This document shows positions 2,889 through 8,944 of a DNA stretch of 25,724 nt, piece by piece. Origin of the DNA: a virus (taxonomy: Duplodnaviria > Heunggongvirae > Uroviricota > Caudoviricetes); IMG/VR virus record IMGVR_UViG_2778261058_000001; one strand, 5' to 3'. A program made the position numbers and the translations under genes. A model generated the notes under the pieces. That model ran no database searches and was not told the DNA's origin. It saw nothing but the letters and a program-made list of their open reading frames with translations. Each line of letters begins with the position of its first letter. The stretch's first letter is position 1.

Positions 2889-3228
2889 GAGATACCGTAA
2901 AAGTCAGGGGTTCAAAAAAATCTTCGGTGTGGGCGCTAATCAGCAGGCGACCAGAAAGCGGGGTTTCTTCTGTCACACTGACCGTGCCGGGTGTGATGCG
3001 CTCATCATCTTCAATCAGCAGTGTCATCTGCATCATGATGTCGGCACGAAGCGTCGGGCTTTTTTCAGCCAGCAGGCGCGTTGCCAGTCCGCTTTCAATG
3101 ATGGCGTGCTGGCAGTCCTGGGCAATACTTTCCCTGTTGTTGCATAACACCGGCTCACTGGCGCTGTTCAGCGTGAGATTGCGGCCGGTGATGAGCAAAT
3201 CAATGTAAAGCGGTTTATCAGTATGCAT
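2878..3228 (-). CDS. small baseplate protein in the gpW position (116 aa)
   Basis: Track ORF 2878..3366 trimmed to the ATG at 3228..3226, which overlaps the tape-measure stop (ATGCATACTGA, out of frame). Size and position match P2 gpW (115 aa), but I see no clear GP25/W motif, so the function is positional only. Confidence 0.4.
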   Translation of the reverse strand: MHTDKPLYIDLLITGRNLTLNSASEPVLCNNRESIAQDCQHAIIESGLATRLLAEKSPTLRADIMMQMTLLIEDDERITPGTVSVTEETPLSGRLLISAHTEDFFEPLTFTVSLDD

Positions 3229-5314
3229 GCAGCTCCATCCACTCGTTAAGACGGGCAGGGGATGGATCCTGCACATTGACGTTAACCACACGACGGGAGT
3301 TGTCGATGGTGGTTTGCTTTTCGCTGTTGTTCTGCATCTCTGCCGCAATGCCGCCCGGTCCCGCACTGATGGCTTTGCCGCCGGTTAATACGGAGCCTTC
3401 GCCACTTCCTGTGCTTTCTGATGTGCCGATGTTAACGCCGGGGATCATGTTGAGTTTGTCCACAATCCAGCCCCATGAATCACTGAAGGACTGTTTCACC
3501 AGTTCCCAGAGGTTGCTGAAAATATTCAGTATGCCGCCCGCGAGATCCTTCAGGGCATCCAGTGGTGAATGGGTGGAAAAATAGTTAACCAGTGCATTCC
3601 AGCCATCCCTGATTGCACTCCATGCATTGCCGAACCACGCCCCCATGCTGTTAATGATGCCGGCAACCCACTGAAATGCAGCGGTATCCATCAGTGCAGC
3701 TTTGATTTCATCCCAGCGGGTAATCAGGAAATAAATGCCCACACCCAGCGCAGCCAGTGCCAGGATGATTAATGTGATGGGGCTGAAAAGTAACTGTGTT
3801 GCAATTGCGGCTCCGCTGGTGACTGCGGAATAAATCCCCATGGCAACAGAAACGGCTGATAATGCTGCTGCCTGCAGGAGCATTCCGGCACGTTGTAGGC
3901 CCATCAATAGCAGTTGTGCTCTGGCGCGAATATTCATCACTCCCATGGCGATGTTTATTGCCAGATATATTGCTCTTACCATGCGGGCGGCAGCACAGAA
4001 CGCAAGCATAACCACTCTCATTGTGCGATACAGAAAAACGATTAATTTCAGTGGGGCGATGACGGCCATCCAGACCATGCGTAATCCCACCCAGATAAAT
4101 TTCGCAACCCCCATTACGACATTGACCGTTGCGCCAACCGCCGCAACACCAATAAGTGCCGCGCTTAATAAGCCGATTGCGCGAGTGATGTTTGGATACA
4201 GGCGTAACCAGGCAACAAAGGATTTACCGCCTTCGTTGCTTTTCTGGATAAACGGGTACAGAACAGGCAACAACTGCGTGCCAATTTCGATGCGAATGCC
4301 GTTAATAATTGCAGCGGCCTGTTCCCATGGATCAGCCATGGCCTGCGCCATTTCGACAGCCTTATCCATACCTTTGATATTGCCCAGCGTGGCGATATTC
4401 TTTTCAAGTCCGCCAATGTCCGCATTGAGTAATTTAATCATGGCCACAGCTTCATCGGAGCCAAAGGCGCTTTTCAGCAAATCGGAATCAGCCACTTTTG
4501 ACAGATCACCAAATTTACCCCTGATAAGTTTCATGATCTCGACAACACTTTTCATCGTGCCGTCTTTATTCACGAAATTAAGCCCCAGCTTTTTCTGGGC
4601 GCTGCCTACTGCGGCAAGAAATGCCTTGTACTTTGTCCCGGCCTCGCTGCCACTCATGGTGGCCTGCAGTTGTCCCAGCACGGCGAACTGTTCAGCCGCA
4701 TCAATACCGGCCGCTTTTGCACTGGCACCCAGCGTGGTGAACGCCGCTGACATGTTATCGCCGGTTGTTTTAAACATTTGCACGGCGGTGGCGGTTTGCC
4801 CGGCGACCTGCTCCACCCATTTGCTTTTTCCCATGGCATCAGCCTGGTCTTTAAAGATGCCGTACATGGTGCCCATGTAGGCGGTAATGGTCTGGCTGCT
4901 GGATTTGGTTGCTGCTGCCACCGTTGCTGATGCGGTGGTGAAGCGGGACAGCTCATCGTCAGTTAACCCGGCAATGGCTGACTGGATGTCGTAAGAAGCA
5001 CGCACAAAATCCTGCGCAGCCCCGCCGTATTCCATAGTGAAATCAACGGCGGCGCGGCTGAGTTTACGCAATCCGGACTCTGCGACGCCCAGTGATTTCA
5101 CCTCACCGAGCGCCCTGTCCATTTCAATGGCTGGCATCAATGCCCCCTGAATAGCTGCTCCCACTCCCCAGAGCGCAGCGCCTCCGGTAGCAATGTCCCG
5201 AAAGGCTCCCCGACTTGTTGCAGCAAATCCCTGAACCTGTCGCCCGGCTGCACGCAACGGCCTTGTCAGGCGGTCTGTCAGTTCAAGAAGTAATTCAAGG
5301 CGCTGTTGTGACAT
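3218..5314 (-). CDS. tail tape measure protein
   Basis: 698-aa ORF. Ala/Gly-rich helical N-terminal half, central hydrophobic membrane-like block (LLSAALIGVAAVGATVNVVMGVAKFIWVGLRMVWMAVIAPL...), Gly-rich C-terminus. Lies directly after the frameshifting chaperone, the canonical position. Confidence 0.85.
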   Translation of the reverse strand: MSQQRLELLLELTDRLTRPLRAAGRQVQGFAATSRGAFRDIATGGAALWGVGAAIQGALMPAIEMDRALGEVKSLGVAESGLRKLSRAAVDFTMEYGGAAQDFVRASYDIQSAIAGLTDDELSRFTTASATVAAATKSSSQTITAYMGTMYGIFKDQADAMGKSKWVEQVAGQTATAVQMFKTTGDNMSAAFTTLGASAKAAGIDAAEQFAVLGQLQATMSGSEAGTKYKAFLAAVGSAQKKLGLNFVNKDGTMKSVVEIMKLIRGKFGDLSKVADSDLLKSAFGSDEAVAMIKLLNADIGGLEKNIATLGNIKGMDKAVEMAQAMADPWEQAAAIINGIRIEIGTQLLPVLYPFIQKSNEGGKSFVAWLRLYPNITRAIGLLSAALIGVAAVGATVNVVMGVAKFIWVGLRMVWMAVIAPLKLIVFLYRTMRVVMLAFCAAARMVRAIYLAINIAMGVMNIRARAQLLLMGLQRAGMLLQAAALSAVSVAMGIYSAVTSGAAIATQLLFSPITLIILALAALGVGIYFLITRWDEIKAALMDTAAFQWVAGIINSMGAWFGNAWSAIRDGWNALVNYFSTHSPLDALKDLAGGILNIFSNLWELVKQSFSDSWGWIVDKLNMIPGVNIGTSESTGSGEGSVLTGGKAISAGPGGIAAEMQNNSEKQTTIDNSRRVVNVNVQDPSPARLNEWMELHAY

Positions 5315-5316
5315 TA

Positions 5317-5510
5317 CGATCCCTTAAAAGCACGGATAATGCCGTTATTGACGGCGATGCCCATATTTTCCCAGTAGTGGTTATCCAGCCAGACGGCGGC
5401 AGCCAGTGACTGCGGCGAGTCATCCTCGCCGGGCAGCCAGTGGCGGCGCAGGATCAGCATCCGGGTAAGGTCATTGCGATCAATGGCCCCCAGATGGCTT
5501 TTTATTTTTT
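5317..5510 (-). CDS. -1 frameshift extension of the tail chaperone (E'-like / GT-like long form)
   Basis: After a -1 slip on A_AAA_AAA (minus-strand 5510..5504) the frame reads IKSHLGAIDRNDLTRMLILRRHWLPGEDDSPQSLAAAVWLDNHYWENMGIAVNNGIIRAFKGS (64 codons, no stop). It ends at TAA 5316..5314, sharing one base with the tape-measure ATG (TAATG). Translated by hand. Confidence 0.65.
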
Positions 5511-5795
5511 TACGGTGATTTCCACTTCCGGCACAAACTCGTTATTCACGGCTGTTGCCAGGCTGGCCGGCATTCCTGGTTTTTCCAGCAACTGGTTCAG
5601 CAGATCGCGGTGCTCTTTAATCACGATGCGGCGCAGGTAGTTTTTCAGCGGCGCGATTTTGTTATCCGGCATGAAGTCGTTCTGCAGATCGTTGTAGGCT
5701 TTAACGGTCGGGATAAACGTCAGTTCATGCTCGCCGACCTGCAAAGTGATGGTGTTCTCTGCGGTAGTCTGGGTGTTTTTATCGTTCATCATCAT
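5502..5795 (-). CDS. tail assembly chaperone, short form (E/G-like)
   Basis: 97-aa acidic ORF starting ATGATGATG with an AAAAGGAA ribosome-binding site, located between the tube gene and the tape measure gene. Ends GTA AAA AAA TAA on a slippery A-run. Confidence 0.7.
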   Translation of the reverse strand: MMMNDKNTQTTAENTITLQVGEHELTFIPTVKAYNDLQNDFMPDNKIAPLKNYLRRIVIKEHRDLLNQLLEKPGMPASLATAVNNEFVPEVEITVKK

Positions 5796-5820
5796 TTCCT
5801 TTTAAAGTCAAGAATAAGAG

Positions 5821-5853
5821 GGCTTAATAAGCCTGCAGGAAGGCTTATTAAGC
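5821..5853 (-). terminator. hairpin with U-rich tail between peptidase gene and chaperone gene
   Basis: 12-bp inverted repeat GGCTTAATAAGC / GCTTATTAAGCC with an 8-nt loop; on the minus-strand RNA it is followed by UCUUAUUCUUGACUUU and then the chaperone ribosome-binding site. Confidence 0.5.
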
Positions 5854-5859
5854 GTAAAA

Positions 5860-6201
5860 TCAGCGCACGCCGTCGTGCTCAAGGCTGAAATGATTGCCAT
5901 CCGGGCGGTTTTTAAAACGACCGCCCCATGCGCCACCAAGGGATTCCCAGTACTCGCCCAGCTCGCGGTAGGCCTCTGTGCGGGTCTGATATTCACCGTT
6001 AATAAACAGGTTAAAATCCACGGCCAGCCGCTGACAGTGCAGGCTGTTGGCAATGCCTGATCCCTTTTGTGCGTTGAGTTTTGCCTGTTCTGGCGTGCGG
6101 TACGCTTCACCGAACGTCAGGCCATAACCGCGCTGATGGGCAAACTGGATGAGTTTTCCGATCATGACGGTAAATTGTTGTTGCTTATCGGAGAGTTTCA
6201 T
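5860..6201 (-). CDS. M15-family zinc peptidase, probable endolysin
   Basis: 113-aa ORF with strong ribosome-binding site AAGGAGCAAAAATG. Motifs SLHCQRLAVDFNL and DGNHFSLEH fit the His/Asp/His zinc-binding pattern of small M15 peptidases; no signal peptide. Confidence 0.7.
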   Translation of the reverse strand: MKLSDKQQQFTVMIGKLIQFAHQRGYGLTFGEAYRTPEQAKLNAQKGSGIANSLHCQRLAVDFNLFINGEYQTRTEAYRELGEYWESLGGAWGGRFKNRPDGNHFSLEHDGVR

Positions 6202-6305
6202 TTTTGCTCCTTATGAGGTTGCTGAGGTTTGCGCAGCCAGTACCACAGTGCCCGGATAATTTTCCAGGCAATGGCGGCAGCTTTTTGTTCCCTGCGGGAC
6301 AGCAT
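6198..6305 (-). CDS. possible 35-aa amphipathic peptide between holin-like and peptidase genes
   Basis: ATG at 6305..6303, 5 nt after the holin-like stop; ends in TGA overlapping the peptidase ATG (ATGA). Translation MLSRREQKAAAIAWKIIRALWYWLRKPQQPHKEQK. Below the ORF-track size cutoff; coding status uncertain. Confidence 0.3.
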   Translation of the reverse strand: MLSRREQKAAAIAWKIIRALWYWLRKPQQPHKEQK

Positions 6306-6310
6306 TGCTG

Positions 6311-6607
6311 TTACTCCTCTTTGTTCTCTTTCTCGCCCAGCTTCCGGCGCATATGACGCAGGAAGATTTCAACAATCTGGTAACCGGCAACGCCCATTGC
6401 GGTGCCTGCGCCGGCAATGGCCAGTGGGTCAAGGTTCGGGTAGCGAACCAGCAGGGCAGCGGCAGAAACACCCAGCGCGCTCCCCAGCAGGGTTCGGCCC
6501 ACAAACAACCGCAACGTAATCGGCTCTGCGCCAGCCAGCACCCGACTTGCGGCAGCGATTCCGCCCAGAATGCCCAGAGTGATAATGGTGCGCTCATGCT
6601 CCTGCAT
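6311..6607 (-). CDS. holin-like small membrane protein
   Basis: 98 aa with three predicted hydrophobic helices (ITLGILGGIAAASRVLAGA; LRLFVGRTLLGSALGVSAAALLV; LAIAGAGTAMGVAGYQIVEIF) and a charged C-terminus RRKLGEKENKEE; sits just upstream of the peptidase gene. Confidence 0.5.
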   Translation of the reverse strand: MQEHERTIITLGILGGIAAASRVLAGAEPITLRLFVGRTLLGSALGVSAAALLVRYPNLDPLAIAGAGTAMGVAGYQIVEIFLRHMRRKLGEKENKEE

Positions 6608-6610
6608 GGT

Positions 6611-7066
6611 TCACCCCATCAGTCCGCGCACGTCGTTCTCTGAGAGAACGGGCACGCCGTTGATACGCACAAAGTCAGGGCTTGCCACCACGTACTTGAT
6701 TTTGTGCGTGGTCAGATCTGCGCTCTCGGTGTCAATGCTTAACAGGCCGGAAAGCATCAGCTCACAACCGAAGGCTTCAACGCGGATTTCTTCGCTTCCC
6801 GTATTGGCGTAAAACACAAAATCCATTGGCGGCAGATCGCGCCACGATCCCGCCTGAGCAGCCACTTCCCCGAGCTGGTTAAAGCTGCGGGTACTCATTT
6901 CGATTTCACCTTCGGCACTGACAGGGCCGCGCAGTTTGCCGTCAGGGATGCCACGGGTTTTGGCAACGGCGCTTTCATCGCTGATGTCCAGTGAGATGCT
7001 TTTCACATGGATATCCGTTCCACCGATAAAGGTGTCAAACGCCATGCCGTTAATGCGGGTCGTCAT
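6611..7066 (-). CDS. tail tube protein
   Basis: 151-aa ORF directly after the sheath gene (ATGA overlap at 7063..7066); size and position are typical of contractile-tail tube proteins. Confidence 0.7.
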   Translation of the reverse strand: MTTRINGMAFDTFIGGTDIHVKSISLDISDESAVAKTRGIPDGKLRGPVSAEGEIEMSTRSFNQLGEVAAQAGSWRDLPPMDFVFYANTGSEEIRVEAFGCELMLSGLLSIDTESADLTTHKIKYVVASPDFVRINGVPVLSENDVRGLMG

Positions 7067-8211
7067 GCGTTTTCCTCCAGAGATTTATCCAGCTGAATGC
7101 CCACTTTGATGGTTTTAGGGCAGGCGTAAGGGCGGACGACAATGCTGATGCTGACCGTCTTTTCGTCCTGCCAGGTGATAACCACGTCGCCTTTCTGAGG
7201 CGATTTCACTTCGCCCGGAAACGTGATGCCGTTAATTTGCATGGATTTCGCCATGGCACGCAATGGGCGGGCAAACAGCGTTTCATGTGCGGCAATGCTG
7301 CCCGGCGTGCTGTTCAGTGAGCGATCGGCAATTTTGGGGATGGCCATCAGCCGCACGCGGCGCGCCACCTTATCAGCAATGCGGACATGCTCAATGACGT
7401 TGTAGTCCCCGCCTTCCACCTCAAGTGTTACACCGTCAGCCCAGTAAAGGCCGTCATAGTCGGCATACCACATGGGCACGCTGTAGCGGGCGGTTGCCAG
7501 TGCCTGCAGAGTGTCGAGATCAATTGCCTGCCCTGCGCTGTCTTTCGGGCGTTCCGTGGTCTTCAGTGCGGACAGCGCCCCGGTTGCCACACGTGCCGGA
7601 CTGTCAGCAATGGTGACGGCGCTGTTACACAGGCGACCGGCAAGAACGCCCGGTTCAAATCCAAAAATCTCCGGAACCAGCATGACCTGCGGGGCTGCAA
7701 TGCCTTTCTGTAGTTCGGTCAGTTTGGCAACGTATTCCGCCCAGGTTTTACTGTTGTCGTTGGCGGCGATGGTCAGGATGAACCAGATGCGGCGCTGATA
7801 TTTATTGATGATGGTCTGACGTAACGCCTGTATGGCGTTGATGTCATCCTTCGTGCTGACCGGCTCGGTGATCACCACGCCTTCAACTGAAACAGTTTCC
7901 TGAGCCGCCAGTATGGCGTTCTGCCATACCTGGCAGGCTGGCGTTGCTTCTTTGCCTTTGCCGGCTTCCGGCAGAACGGCAACATAGAAAAAGGCATTCT
8001 GTCCGGCATTGGTCAGTGCAGACTGAAGGAAGTTCTTCAGCGGGCTGGCGTTCTTTCCCAGTAGCTCATCCAGATCGCTGTTGGCATTAACCGGCAGAAC
8101 CTCACCTTTGTTGTTTTGTGCATTGCCCACAAACAGCAGCGTATTTTCCACGCCGTCCGGCGAGCTACTGAACGTGTTGTACTGTTCAATTGTGACAGAT
8201 GGCCAGGTCAT
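7063..8211 (-). CDS. tail sheath protein
   Basis: Track ORF 7063..8343 trimmed to the ATG at 8211..8209 (MTWPSVTIEQ...), which has a GGAGA ribosome-binding site and avoids overlap with the upstream gene. About 382 aa, directly upstream of the tube gene. Confidence 0.75.
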   Translation of the reverse strand: MTWPSVTIEQYNTFSSSPDGVENTLLFVGNAQNNKGEVLPVNANSDLDELLGKNASPLKNFLQSALTNAGQNAFFYVAVLPEAGKGKEATPACQVWQNAILAAQETVSVEGVVITEPVSTKDDINAIQALRQTIINKYQRRIWFILTIAANDNSKTWAEYVAKLTELQKGIAAPQVMLVPEIFGFEPGVLAGRLCNSAVTIADSPARVATGALSALKTTERPKDSAGQAIDLDTLQALATARYSVPMWYADYDGLYWADGVTLEVEGGDYNVIEHVRIADKVARRVRLMAIPKIADRSLNSTPGSIAAHETLFARPLRAMAKSMQINGITFPGEVKSPQKGDVVITWQDEKTVSISIVVRPYACPKTIKVGIQLDKSLEENA

Positions 8212-8230
8212 AATTTGTCTCCTGATTTTG

Positions 8231-8944
8231 TTATCTCGTGCCGCCGTAATGCAGGCTGCGCAGCTGCGCTTCCAGAATGCGGGCAAATTCAGCGTTACTG
8301 GCTCCCAGAAATGCGCGGGAGGGAATTTTGATTTCCCATACACGTTTTTTCTGCTCGCCTTTCAGAATGCTGATCACCAGCCCGGCCTGCGCCATACTCA
8401 TGTTTTCCATAATCCATTTCAGGGAAGGTTTTCTGTATCCCCTGCGTCCGGTTTTTTTGCTGGCCGCGCCGACGGGGGCGCGAAAGCCCAGAGAAAGAAG
8501 GCGTTCTGCCTGCCGTCGTGTGGCGGGACGGGTGCGCATGGCTTCGCTGTCCCGGCGTTTTGTGGCGCGGCCTTTGATGGTTGCGCCGTGCTGTTGCACC
8601 CACGCAACTGCCCCACCATGAGAGCCGGTGTTGTAATCCCCTTTTTTGAAGAAAAGGCGGACACTTTTCCCGCTGCCGTCAACCCTGATGGCCAGCAGTT
8701 TCGGCAGTCCCAGCAGCATTTTGTTTTTATACCTGCCGCTGGCTTTATCCGGTCTTTTTCGTGGTGCCCAGGCTGCCCCCTCCGGTGTTCGCTGTGCTTT
8801 CACATTGCGTCGTGCAGCCGGTATCAGGCCGTATTTCGCAATGCGAACCAACAGCTTTCTGGCCTTTGCCGGCGGAAGTTCTGCCTCTCTGATGGCGCGA
8901 CGAACCTGCCGGAGTTGTGACTCGTTAATCACGGGGCGCGTCAT
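8231..8944 (-). CDS. virion morphogenesis / tail completion protein, P2 gpS-like
   Basis: 237-aa basic protein between the R-like gene and the sheath gene; resembles the phage virion morphogenesis family by eye; ATGA overlap with the upstream gene at 8941..8944. Confidence 0.6.
   Translation of the reverse strand: MTRPVINESQLRQVRRAIREAELPPAKARKLLVRIAKYGLIPAARRNVKAQRTPEGAAWAPRKRPDKASGRYKNKMLLGLPKLLAIRVDGSGKSVRLFFKKGDYNTGSHGGAVAWVQQHGATIKGRATKRRDSEAMRTRPATRRQAERLLSLGFRAPVGAASKKTGRRGYRKPSLKWIMENMSMAQAGLVISILKGEQKKRVWEIKIPSRAFLGASNAEFARILEAQLRSLHYGGTR

Follow-up and report, generated by a model that had tools for sequence, protein, structure and literature searches.

The question raised by the virus record IMGVR_UViG_2778261058_000001 (Caudoviricetes), a stretch of 25,724 nucleotides (nt) that was analyzed as a whole and is called the window here, is what a holin-like membrane protein and a small M15 peptidase do inside the tail operon, between the genes of the tail tube and the tail assembly chaperone, and how lysis would be completed by a cassette in which no spanin genes are seen. 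In a preliminary description, made from the DNA letters only, these genes were regarded as inserted into the tail operon, either as a relocated lysis module or as a tail-associated wall-degrading module. Based on our analysis, the lysis reading is retained and the tail reading is abandoned: the region is very probably the ordinary host-lysis cassette, with a holin and a zinc-peptidase endolysin, of an intact Escherichia coli prophage that combines a P2-type head with an HP1-type tail. The real departure was overlooked in that description, and it is that the spanin pair has been lost and a small cationic open reading frame (ORF) is present.

The elements that had been described, namely the holin, a peptide, the M15 peptidase and a hairpin, are all present on the minus strand, as are all the genes of the lysis region, and Pfam and PHROG profiles assign every gene but one, the small ORF. 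The holin gene (6311..6607, minus strand; 98 amino acids, aa) begins 3 nt after the stop of the tube gene and lies 109 nt upstream of the M15 gene (5860..6201, minus strand; 113 aa) on the same strand. The small ORF (6198..6305, minus strand; 35 aa, MLSRREQKAAAIAWKIIRALWYWLRKPQQPHKEQK) stands between them. The final two codons of the holin gene supply its Shine-Dalgarno sequence, GAGGAG (6314..6319, minus strand), which precedes the ATG at 6305 by 8 nt; at the other end, the stop of the small ORF shares the tetranucleotide ATGA (6198-6201) with the M15 start. The Shine-Dalgarno sequence of the M15 gene, AAGGAG (6207..6212, minus strand), lies in turn within the final codons of the small ORF. 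The earlier suggestion of a coupled, amphipathic 35-aa peptide agrees with this arrangement and with the predicted amphipathic helix that is described below.

The membrane protein matches the holin family PF04550 (Phage_holin_3_2) over profile positions 1-85 of 86 (E = 5.5e-28; 97.7 bits, with a cut-off of 25) and the holin family PHROG 175 (E = 1.2e-32). An alignment with the Y protein of phage P2 spans 93 aa at 39% identity (E = 3e-25). P2 Y is the prototype of PF04550, with a score of 143.6 bits against the profile, and gp29 of phage phiKT also matches this family. The profile match is thus of full length and to a holin family, and these similarities identify the protein as a P2 Y homologue and a predicted member of the P2 Y-type class I family. 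P2 Y is a canonical large-hole class I holin. A homologue of the hol gene of phage HP1 had been expected at this position, and this candidate was rejected since the window holin shows no similarity to HP1 hol. By a simple hydropathy scan the protein has two clear hydrophobic segments (residues 6-27 and 39-55) and a weaker third one (~59-82), and its C-terminal tail, RHMRRKLGEKENKEE, has 10 charged residues among the last 16. The profiles of NCBIfam gave no match for the holin, the small peptide or the M15 protein.

The M15 protein matches PF13539 (Peptidase_M15_4; E = 3.2e-11, 44.1 bits, cut-off 25) and the PHROG endolysin families 1768, 465 and 2649, and it is 75-80% identical to the annotated endolysins of the phages SI7, ESSI2_ev015 and vB_YenM_324. 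It contains the LAS-type motifs SLH55CQRLAVD62 and D101GNH104, and H55, D62, D101 and H104 are invariant in 11 sequences that cover both clades discussed below; from general knowledge of LAS enzymes, we take these four residues to be the zinc and catalytic ligands. The T5-type L-alanyl-D-glutamate endopeptidases (M15C; PDB 8q2g) have the same motifs, S-x-H-x4-A-V-D and D-G-x-H-F, which align in register with those of the window protein, although the similarity found in a sequence search of solved structures is marginal (E = 0.071); these enzymes are also longer (~137 aa compared with 113 aa), and the window enzyme falls in Pfam M15_4. The earlier call of an M15 zinc peptidase was therefore confirmed by the family match and the conserved motifs of the His/Asp/His type, with its activity being a prediction from sequence. 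No signal peptide, signal-arrest-release (SAR) segment or other hydrophobic segment was found in the protein, whose mean Kyte-Doolittle value stays at or below 0.7 over every stretch of 15 residues. Because it lacks a hydrophobic N-terminal segment, the enzyme is predicted to be soluble and dependent on a hole-forming holin, which fits the P2 Y-type holin encoded beside it. Between the window and its relatives, the ratio of nonsynonymous to synonymous substitution rates (dN/dS) is 0.03-0.14 for both holin and M15 genes, at dS ~0.6-1.2, and this indicates that both are kept under long-term purifying selection. In E. coli, an M15 gene with ~74% DNA identity was also met in a different prophage family, beside a DNA methyltransferase gene and not in an HP1-type tail cluster (hits H97-H103); therefore, the endolysin module is exchanged among phage types.

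The idea of an insertion or a relocation of the cassette is justified only when P2 is taken as the reference. In P2 the order is L-X-Y-K-lysA-lysB-lysC-R-S, so that, as had been stated earlier, the lysis genes follow those of head completion and precede R and S, the genes of tail completion; the P2 cassette shares with the window its homologous holin, but its endolysin K is a lysozyme and it has LysA and the LysB/LysC spanins. For the window's own lineage the idea does not hold, because HP1 and the ESSI-2-like relatives keep their lysis genes at the same place. HP1 (Hpunavirus) has the order orf20(L)-orf21(R)-orf22(S)-orf23(sheath)-orf24(tube)-hol-lys-orf25(Rz-like)-orf26-orf27, with the chaperone and the tape measure coming next after the Rz-like gene. 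Its hol and lys products were experimentally characterized as a pinholin and a SAR endolysin (PMC7312051). The proteins themselves differ from those of the window, since the HP1 holin belongs to another family (PF16080, not PF04550) and its endolysin is a SAR muramidase and not an M15 peptidase; HP1 also has an Rz-like gene with an embedded lipoprotein spanin of the outer membrane (o-spanin) and has no small ORF between hol and lys. Closer still are the ESSI-2-like Peduoviridae, for which we used Escherichia phage ESSI2_ev015 (Quadragintavirus), Salmonella phage SI7 (Irrigatiovirus), Yersinia phage vB_YenM_324 (Tresduoquattuorvirus) and Cronobacter phage ESSI-2. Their order is tube, holin, M15 endolysin, Rz-like spanin with o-spanin, chaperone and tape measure, and they share with the window the position, the holin family, the M15 endolysin and the surrounding head and tail genes. 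They differ in that their holin and endolysin genes overlap and are followed by ~480 nt with Rz/Rz1, whereas the window has the 109-nt stretch with the small ORF and a 64-nt hairpin spacer.

The complete HP1-type order (L-like, R-like, S-like, DUF2586 sheath, orf24 tube, lysis genes, TAC_10 chaperone, tape measure) is found in the window, and the comparison of this intergenic position across relatives, which had been proposed earlier, shows a holin and an endolysin there again and again. The position of the cassette is thus, on gene order, the inherited norm of the HP1-type tail-module lineage. Lysis genes between tube and chaperone are known biology, and public phage records already label the holin and the endolysin.

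The element that carries the cassette appears in several bacterial hosts. The region is 99% identical to a prophage found in 42 of 5426 complete E. coli genomes, and the arrangement also occurs in E. albertii, Citrobacter and metagenomic viral contigs; one contig scan with the tube protein returned a single locus, from E. albertii. No match to positions 5400-7100 was found by megablast in the INPHARED phage collection. In the E. coli strain STEC711, a prophage that is 97% identical to the window (95-98% in the shared parts) sits between flk and pdxB and is annotated with a complete set of intact genes, including P2-type head genes, L, R-like, S-like, sheath and tube, in agreement with the gene order that had been read from the window, as well as chaperone, tape measure, baseplate, fibre, Ogr, replication endonuclease, Cox, repressor and integrase. 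At the cassette, this annotation gives a 'phage holin family protein' and an 'M15 family metallopeptidase', and neither the 35-aa ORF nor a spanin was called by the annotation pipeline (PGAP).

The absence of a spanin pair, already noted in the preliminary description, is supported by two kinds of search. The Rz/Rz1 proteins of the relatives gave no tblastn match in the whole window, and the gap between the M15 gene and the chaperone gene is just 64 nt. The ORFs of 25 aa or more on either strand of the window and of the complete STEC711 prophage (L001) were scanned for lipoboxes, which gave no credible lipoprotein, the hits being antisense, out of frame or started with TTG or GTG. One such ORF (5808-5939), inside the 3' end of the M15 gene and with a TTG/GTG start, would have a mature part of 19 residues including the Cys, encoded by the hairpin spacer; it was rejected, as it is cut to 5-6 residues after the Cys in five of nine relatives. 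As controls, the o-spanins of four of five phages (L002-L004 and HP1) were recovered by the same scan. The window prophage is thus without a spanin, within the imperfect sensitivity of the scan. Among the phages that infect Gram-negative bacteria, ~13-15% lack a spanin that can be recognised (10.1101/515445; PMC12819732). The gene after the endolysin gene in HP1 and the ESSI-2-like phages encodes an Rz-like protein anchored by its N-terminus, and the o-spanin is an overlapping ORF in the +1 frame with a real lipobox (LSAC, TSGC, MSGC or LLAC). In the RefSeq records of the ESSI-2-like phages the o-spanin genes are missing or are started too far downstream (L002 6541-6840, L003 6532-6828, L004 6541-6831); the true signal peptides (LSAC, TSGC, MSGC) start ~100 nt further upstream, in the +1 frame within Rz.

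Relatives of the cassette were collected through holin homologues and an M15-based scan of IMG/VR, which together gave 93 loci. In 66 of them the holin and M15 genes overlap and are followed by ~480 nt with Rz and Rz1, and the small ORF is never found. Another 24 have a gap of 88-118 nt with the small ORF, then a hairpin spacer of 60-86 nt and no spanins. Two loci (L012 and L014) have neither the small ORF nor spanins, and the context of the one remaining locus is uninformative. In neighbor-joining trees of the tube, of M15 and of both combined, all the spanin-less loci form one clade, in which the deepest branches (L010, L015 and L008) carry the small ORF and the two loci without it are nested among those that have it. 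The most economical history is one transition, in which the spanins were lost and the hairpin and the small ORF were gained, followed by two losses of the small ORF. An anticorrelation over many independent events, in which the peptide would replace the spanin again and again, was considered and rejected on the basis of this single clade. The complete E. coli genomes gave the form with the small ORF and no other; in them, matches to a query that lacks it are split by an extra ~119 nt.

Is the small ORF a gene? It is present as 14 alleles of 27-41 residues in the 24 loci, and the frame is open in all of them with no frameshift; one in-frame codon deletion and two C-terminal nonsense changes account for all the length variation. 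Examples are MLSRREQKAAAIAWKIIRALWYWLRKPQQPHKEQK (window), MQSNRQQTAAAIAWKIIRALWRWLRKPQNHRKGQK, MKLTDRQQKRAAIAWKILRTLWRWLCKPQKTSKDKNETL, MNLSDRQKKIITIVWRILRALIKRPGRQQTQKDNTR, MTPSEKQKLTAIIWRVICAAWRHLSKRRGKK and MNTTDRQWRVIATLWRYGQALWRLWKKLRNSNRRE, together with a more distant 41-mer. Identity between alleles drops to 22-37%. Among the closer alleles, the ratio of nonsynonymous to synonymous polymorphism (pN/pS) is 0.29 in the ORF's own frame versus 1.20 and 0.88 in the other two. Because no frameshift has occurred despite such low identity, and because pN/pS is low in its own frame only, this pattern of change indicates that the small ORF is a real protein-coding gene. The peptide of the window has a net charge of +7 and three Trp; every allele has a net charge of +6 to +9, compared with +3 for the first 35 endolysin residues, and one Trp is invariant. 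AlphaFold2 predicts a helix at residues 4-24 of the window peptide, with a predicted local distance difference test score (pLDDT) of 74, and the 18-residue hydrophobic moment of nine alleles is 0.58-0.78, where the M15 N-terminus has 0.41 and LL-37 has 0.89. Hydropathy shows no transmembrane segment and no signal sequence in the peptide.

Database searches with the peptide returned few relatives. There was no match by tblastn in INPHARED, and phmmer against 1.8 billion representatives gave only two relatives, of 35 aa (91% identical) and 39 aa (61%), and three further matches to long proteins with W-rich repeats, which were judged to be artefacts. A -1 slip on the A-run at the stop of the small ORF, which would fuse the peptide to the endolysin, was rejected as well, since the A-run and the frame relation are not kept in L008, L010 and L013. 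The gene appears to have come from its neighbor. The N-terminal 20 residues of the small-ORF family align in register with endolysin residues 1-20 (MKLTDRQQKRAAIAWKILR and MKLSDKQQQFTVMIGKLIQ, respectively), hhalign of the small-ORF family with the M15 N-terminus gives a probability of 80.7% (E = 1.3e-5), and the L013 allele scores 39, where shuffled sequences have a mean of 19.7 and only 1 of 2000 reaches this score. Because of this in-register alignment, the profile comparison and the shuffle test, there is moderate support for the suggestion that the small ORF is a tandem duplicate of the 5' end of the endolysin gene (~20 codons) that diverged to a cationic, Trp-rich peptide.

The second novelty of the clade, the hairpin, stands where the spanin-bearing relatives have Rz/Rz1. 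It spans 5822..5853 (minus strand), has a 13-bp stem and a 6-nt loop, followed by CCUCUUAUUCUU, and was detected by a terminator-like scan; the hairpin with a U-rich tail of the preliminary description is thus real, and it is also conserved in relatives. The 81-nt fold of the region has -21.5 kcal/mol, with z = -3.2 relative to shuffles, and eight diverged loci all retain the 13 pairs. The structure itself is under selection, because compensatory double changes are seen at four of these pairs. By location it comes after the sheath, tube and lysis genes, whose products are abundant, and before the chaperone, tape-measure and baseplate genes of low copy; in P2, an attenuator is annotated at the corresponding point, behind the lysis genes. 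The hairpin is probably a partial terminator or attenuator, or possibly a 3' hairpin that stabilizes the mRNA. Between the hairpin and the chaperone start there is also a motif, CTTGACA(T)TTAAC(A)GGA (5796-5821, minus strand), that is kept in all the spanin-less loci. Its TTGACA is perfect, yet too near the chaperone start to be the -35 element of this gene, and the motif in part forms the chaperone ribosome-binding site.

Based on these data, the following order of events can be suggested. The holin, as expected from its family, would accumulate in the inner membrane and open large holes at a set time, and the soluble M15 enzyme would pass through them and cut the peptide stems of the cell wall, as its family, its motifs and the annotation of its relatives suggest. 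The sister phages would then finish lysis with Rz/Rz1, a pair that was lost in this clade and in whose place the hairpin stands. The cassette appears to form the end of a highly expressed sheath-tube transcription unit, where the hairpin would most likely attenuate transcription into the low-copy chaperone, tape-measure and baseplate genes. The small gene, probably born from ~20 duplicated endolysin codons, would be translationally coupled to the holin and to the endolysin. We favor the reading in which its product acts on membranes as an accessory of lysis and would open the outer membrane once the wall has been cut, in the manner of phiKT gp28.

This protein is required for disruption of the outer membrane and complements amber mutants of lambda Rz/Rz1 (bioRxiv 10.1101/515445, Holt et al.). 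It is the only proven disruptin; such peptides are not yet predictable, and how the outer membrane is opened without spanins is an open question (PMC12819732). Like the window peptide, gp28 is small, has a charge of +7, is predicted to be helical and is encoded in a spanin-less cassette, between an endolysin and a PF04550 holin. The phiKT holin gp29 (L100, 23283-23666; PF04550, E = 2.4e-9) is 28% identical to the window holin over 86 residues (E = 1e-11). There are also clear differences: gp28 has 56 aa while the window peptide has 35 aa, with no detectable sequence similarity between them; phiKT is a virulent member of the Autographiviridae whose endolysin type and gene order differ from those of the window; and the function of gp28 is experimental whereas that of the window peptide, which is Trp-rich and apparently derived from the endolysin, is inferred. 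Of the features that define a disruptin, the window peptide shows small size, positive charge, a predicted amphipathic helix and a spanin-less lysis cassette. By this analogy we tentatively suggest, as the likeliest of the roles considered but still less likely than not, that the peptide is a disruptin-like lysis factor that disrupts the outer membrane. The wider proposal, that a lineage which lost Rz/Rz1 evolved its replacement from an endolysin duplicate and thereby a second, independently arisen family of disruptins, must be regarded as rather doubtful at present.

Several observations weigh against this picture, and they concern each of its parts. The cassette reading for this clade rests on sequence. 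The lipobox scan missed P2 lysC, so its sensitivity is incomplete, and the U-tract of the hairpin is interrupted, so that termination may be weak. Because the spanin-less clade is monophyletic, the pattern of 24 versus 66 loci is not independent evidence; it comes down in essence to one evolutionary event and is suggestive, not statistical, support for a replacement. L012 (3291-3294) and L014 (3288-3291) have lost the small ORF precisely and are still without spanins, and their holin and endolysin genes share ATGA or GTGA as stop and start, an overlap that the spanin-bearing clade also shows; because these two loci do without it, the peptide is dispensable at least for persistence as a prophage. 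Its amphipathicity is moderate, as 0.4-7.6% of the shuffles of each allele reach the hydrophobic moment of that allele. The origin by duplication depends on a profile match of 20 columns at 81% probability. BLASTP of the peptide with gp28 gave no alignment at E <= 100, although homology to gp28 is not to be expected in a class that is delimited by function and in which one member is proven.

One alternative explanation is that the small ORF is a decaying duplicate of the endolysin 5' end, kept open merely to deliver ribosomes to the endolysin start by termination and reinitiation, while the outer membrane would break by shear or osmotic pressure after the wall is lost, with no dedicated protein. 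Such a relic would be expected from the apparent origin of the ORF as a partial duplicate, from its stop, which in nearly every allele touches the M15 start or overlaps with it, and from its divergence, as the alleles are 22-37% identical while the flanking genes are 68-98% identical; the two nested loci that lack it and the share of Gram-negative phages with no recognisable spanin (10.1101/515445; PMC12819732) point the same way. Yet coupling alone would not yield a pN/pS of 0.29 in one frame and of ~1 in the others, it leaves the invariant Trp, the charge of +6 to +9 and the raised hydrophobic moment unexplained amid such heavy turnover, and the holin and endolysin genes of the sister clade overlap directly, with no need for a spacer ORF. 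We therefore consider this explanation unlikely, and less likely than the outer-membrane role. Another hypothesis is that the peptide regulates the timing of lysis at the inner membrane or the holin, as an antiholin-like inhibitor or a depolarizing trigger, and does not disrupt the outer membrane. Its synthesis takes place in the cytoplasm, its gene adjoins that of the holin in one coupled unit, and helices that are both cationic and amphipathic bind the anionic inner leaflet; the cassette contains neither a dual-start holin nor a gene like lysA, which is present in P2. A precedent for small extra lysis factors that act at the holin step is Lcc6 of LambdaSo (10.1101/2024.01.23.576932). However, the sister clade, with holins of the same PF04550 family (31-60% identical to the window holin), does without such a factor, the gene arose in the lineage that lost the spanins, even if this was a single event, and the peptide has no transmembrane segment, all of which make a timing role improbable. 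Some role other than these three takes up the rest of the probability.

The two other explanations concern the cassette as a whole. It could be a degenerate cassette in a decaying prophage, in which the spanins were deleted and the hairpin and the small ORF are debris; the spanins are indeed absent and no cultured phage of INPHARED matches the region at high identity. Decay is nevertheless very hard to reconcile with a clade in which dS is ~1 while the dN/dS of holin and M15 is 0.03-0.14, with the compensatory substitutions in the hairpin, with head and tail genes that are all intact in the annotated relative, and with the spread of the arrangement over the E. coli genomes, the other hosts and the viral contigs named above. 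In the other, M15 would be carried by the tail of the virion as a wall-degrading enzyme for infection, while the membrane protein would serve in structure or assembly; this explanation draws on the location among tail genes. M15 or M23 domains do occur in some phage tails, where they are usually part of a tape-measure or baseplate protein. However, the 113 aa of the window peptidase comprise the catalytic domain alone, with nothing for attachment to a tail, and the membrane protein is a holin of the P2 Y family over its full length. In the 66 spanin-bearing relatives the same two genes are followed by Rz/Rz1, a pair with no role in entry, and the HP1 genes at this position were shown experimentally to be a holin and an endolysin (PMC7312051), so that a tail-borne enzyme is hardly credible here.

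The neighboring genes, all on the minus strand, raise some further points. Upstream of the cassette are the tail sheath gene (ORF 7063..8343; PF10758 DUF2586, E = 4.9e-127; PHROG 907 tail sheath, E = 1.8e-147) and the tail tube gene of the HP1 orf24 type (6611..7066; PF10772 Phage_HP1_Orf24, E = 5.4e-51), whose product is 51% identical to HP1 orf24 (E = 2e-51); the 3' end of the sheath ORF and the tube start overlap by 4 nt. The GTG start of the sheath ORF at 8343 lies 44 codons upstream of the ATG at 8211 that is used by the RefSeq relatives (382 aa), and the shorter form is probably the real one, because the Pfam and PHROG matches begin at residues 45-47. Downstream are the tail assembly chaperone gene (5502..5795; PF10963, E = 1.6e-26), a DUF6890 ORF in the -1 frame of the chaperone (5314..5460; PF21830, E = 1.3e-23) and the tail tape measure gene (3218..5314; PF10145, E = 7.5e-29; PHROG 28, E = 8.7e-92). 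The chaperone gene ends with GT AAAAAAA TAA, with the A7 run at 5505-5511, from which the -1 frame is open into the DUF6890 ORF (5314-5513). The amino acid sequence of this frame upstream of the annotated DUF6890 ATG is kept in all relatives, and the ESSI-2-like phages have a slippery A AAA AAC. Because the -1 frame is open and conserved upstream of that ATG, DUF6890 is most likely a -1 frameshift extension of the tail chaperone, comparable to lambda G/GT and P2 E/E+E', and not a separate 48-aa gene. Further away, the segment 16000-17250 is absent from the STEC711 prophage, which has a gene of an Rrf2-family regulator at that place. It is flanked by an Ogr/Delta zinc-finger gene and a plasmid-stability/ParM-like module and contains, on the minus strand, two ORFs (95 and 92 aa) that match no Pfam family; it is probably a slot for morons or cargo.

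What does the cassette mean for this group of phages? Lysis genes inside the tail cluster are textbook knowledge for HP1-type phages and unimportant by themselves, whereas in the literature that was searched no description was found of the spanin-less variant with its conserved, unannotated cationic peptide gene and covarying hairpin. Annotation pipelines have missed this peptide gene. Two sister clades with the same endolysin and the same holin family, one with Rz/Rz1 and the other with a cationic peptide, offer a near-ideal natural comparison. If the proposed function is correct, these phages would provide a second disruptin family and a case of gene birth from an endolysin fragment, as well as a short natural peptide, active on the outer membrane, that partners an endolysin, which is the principle of the engineered endolysin-peptide fusions.

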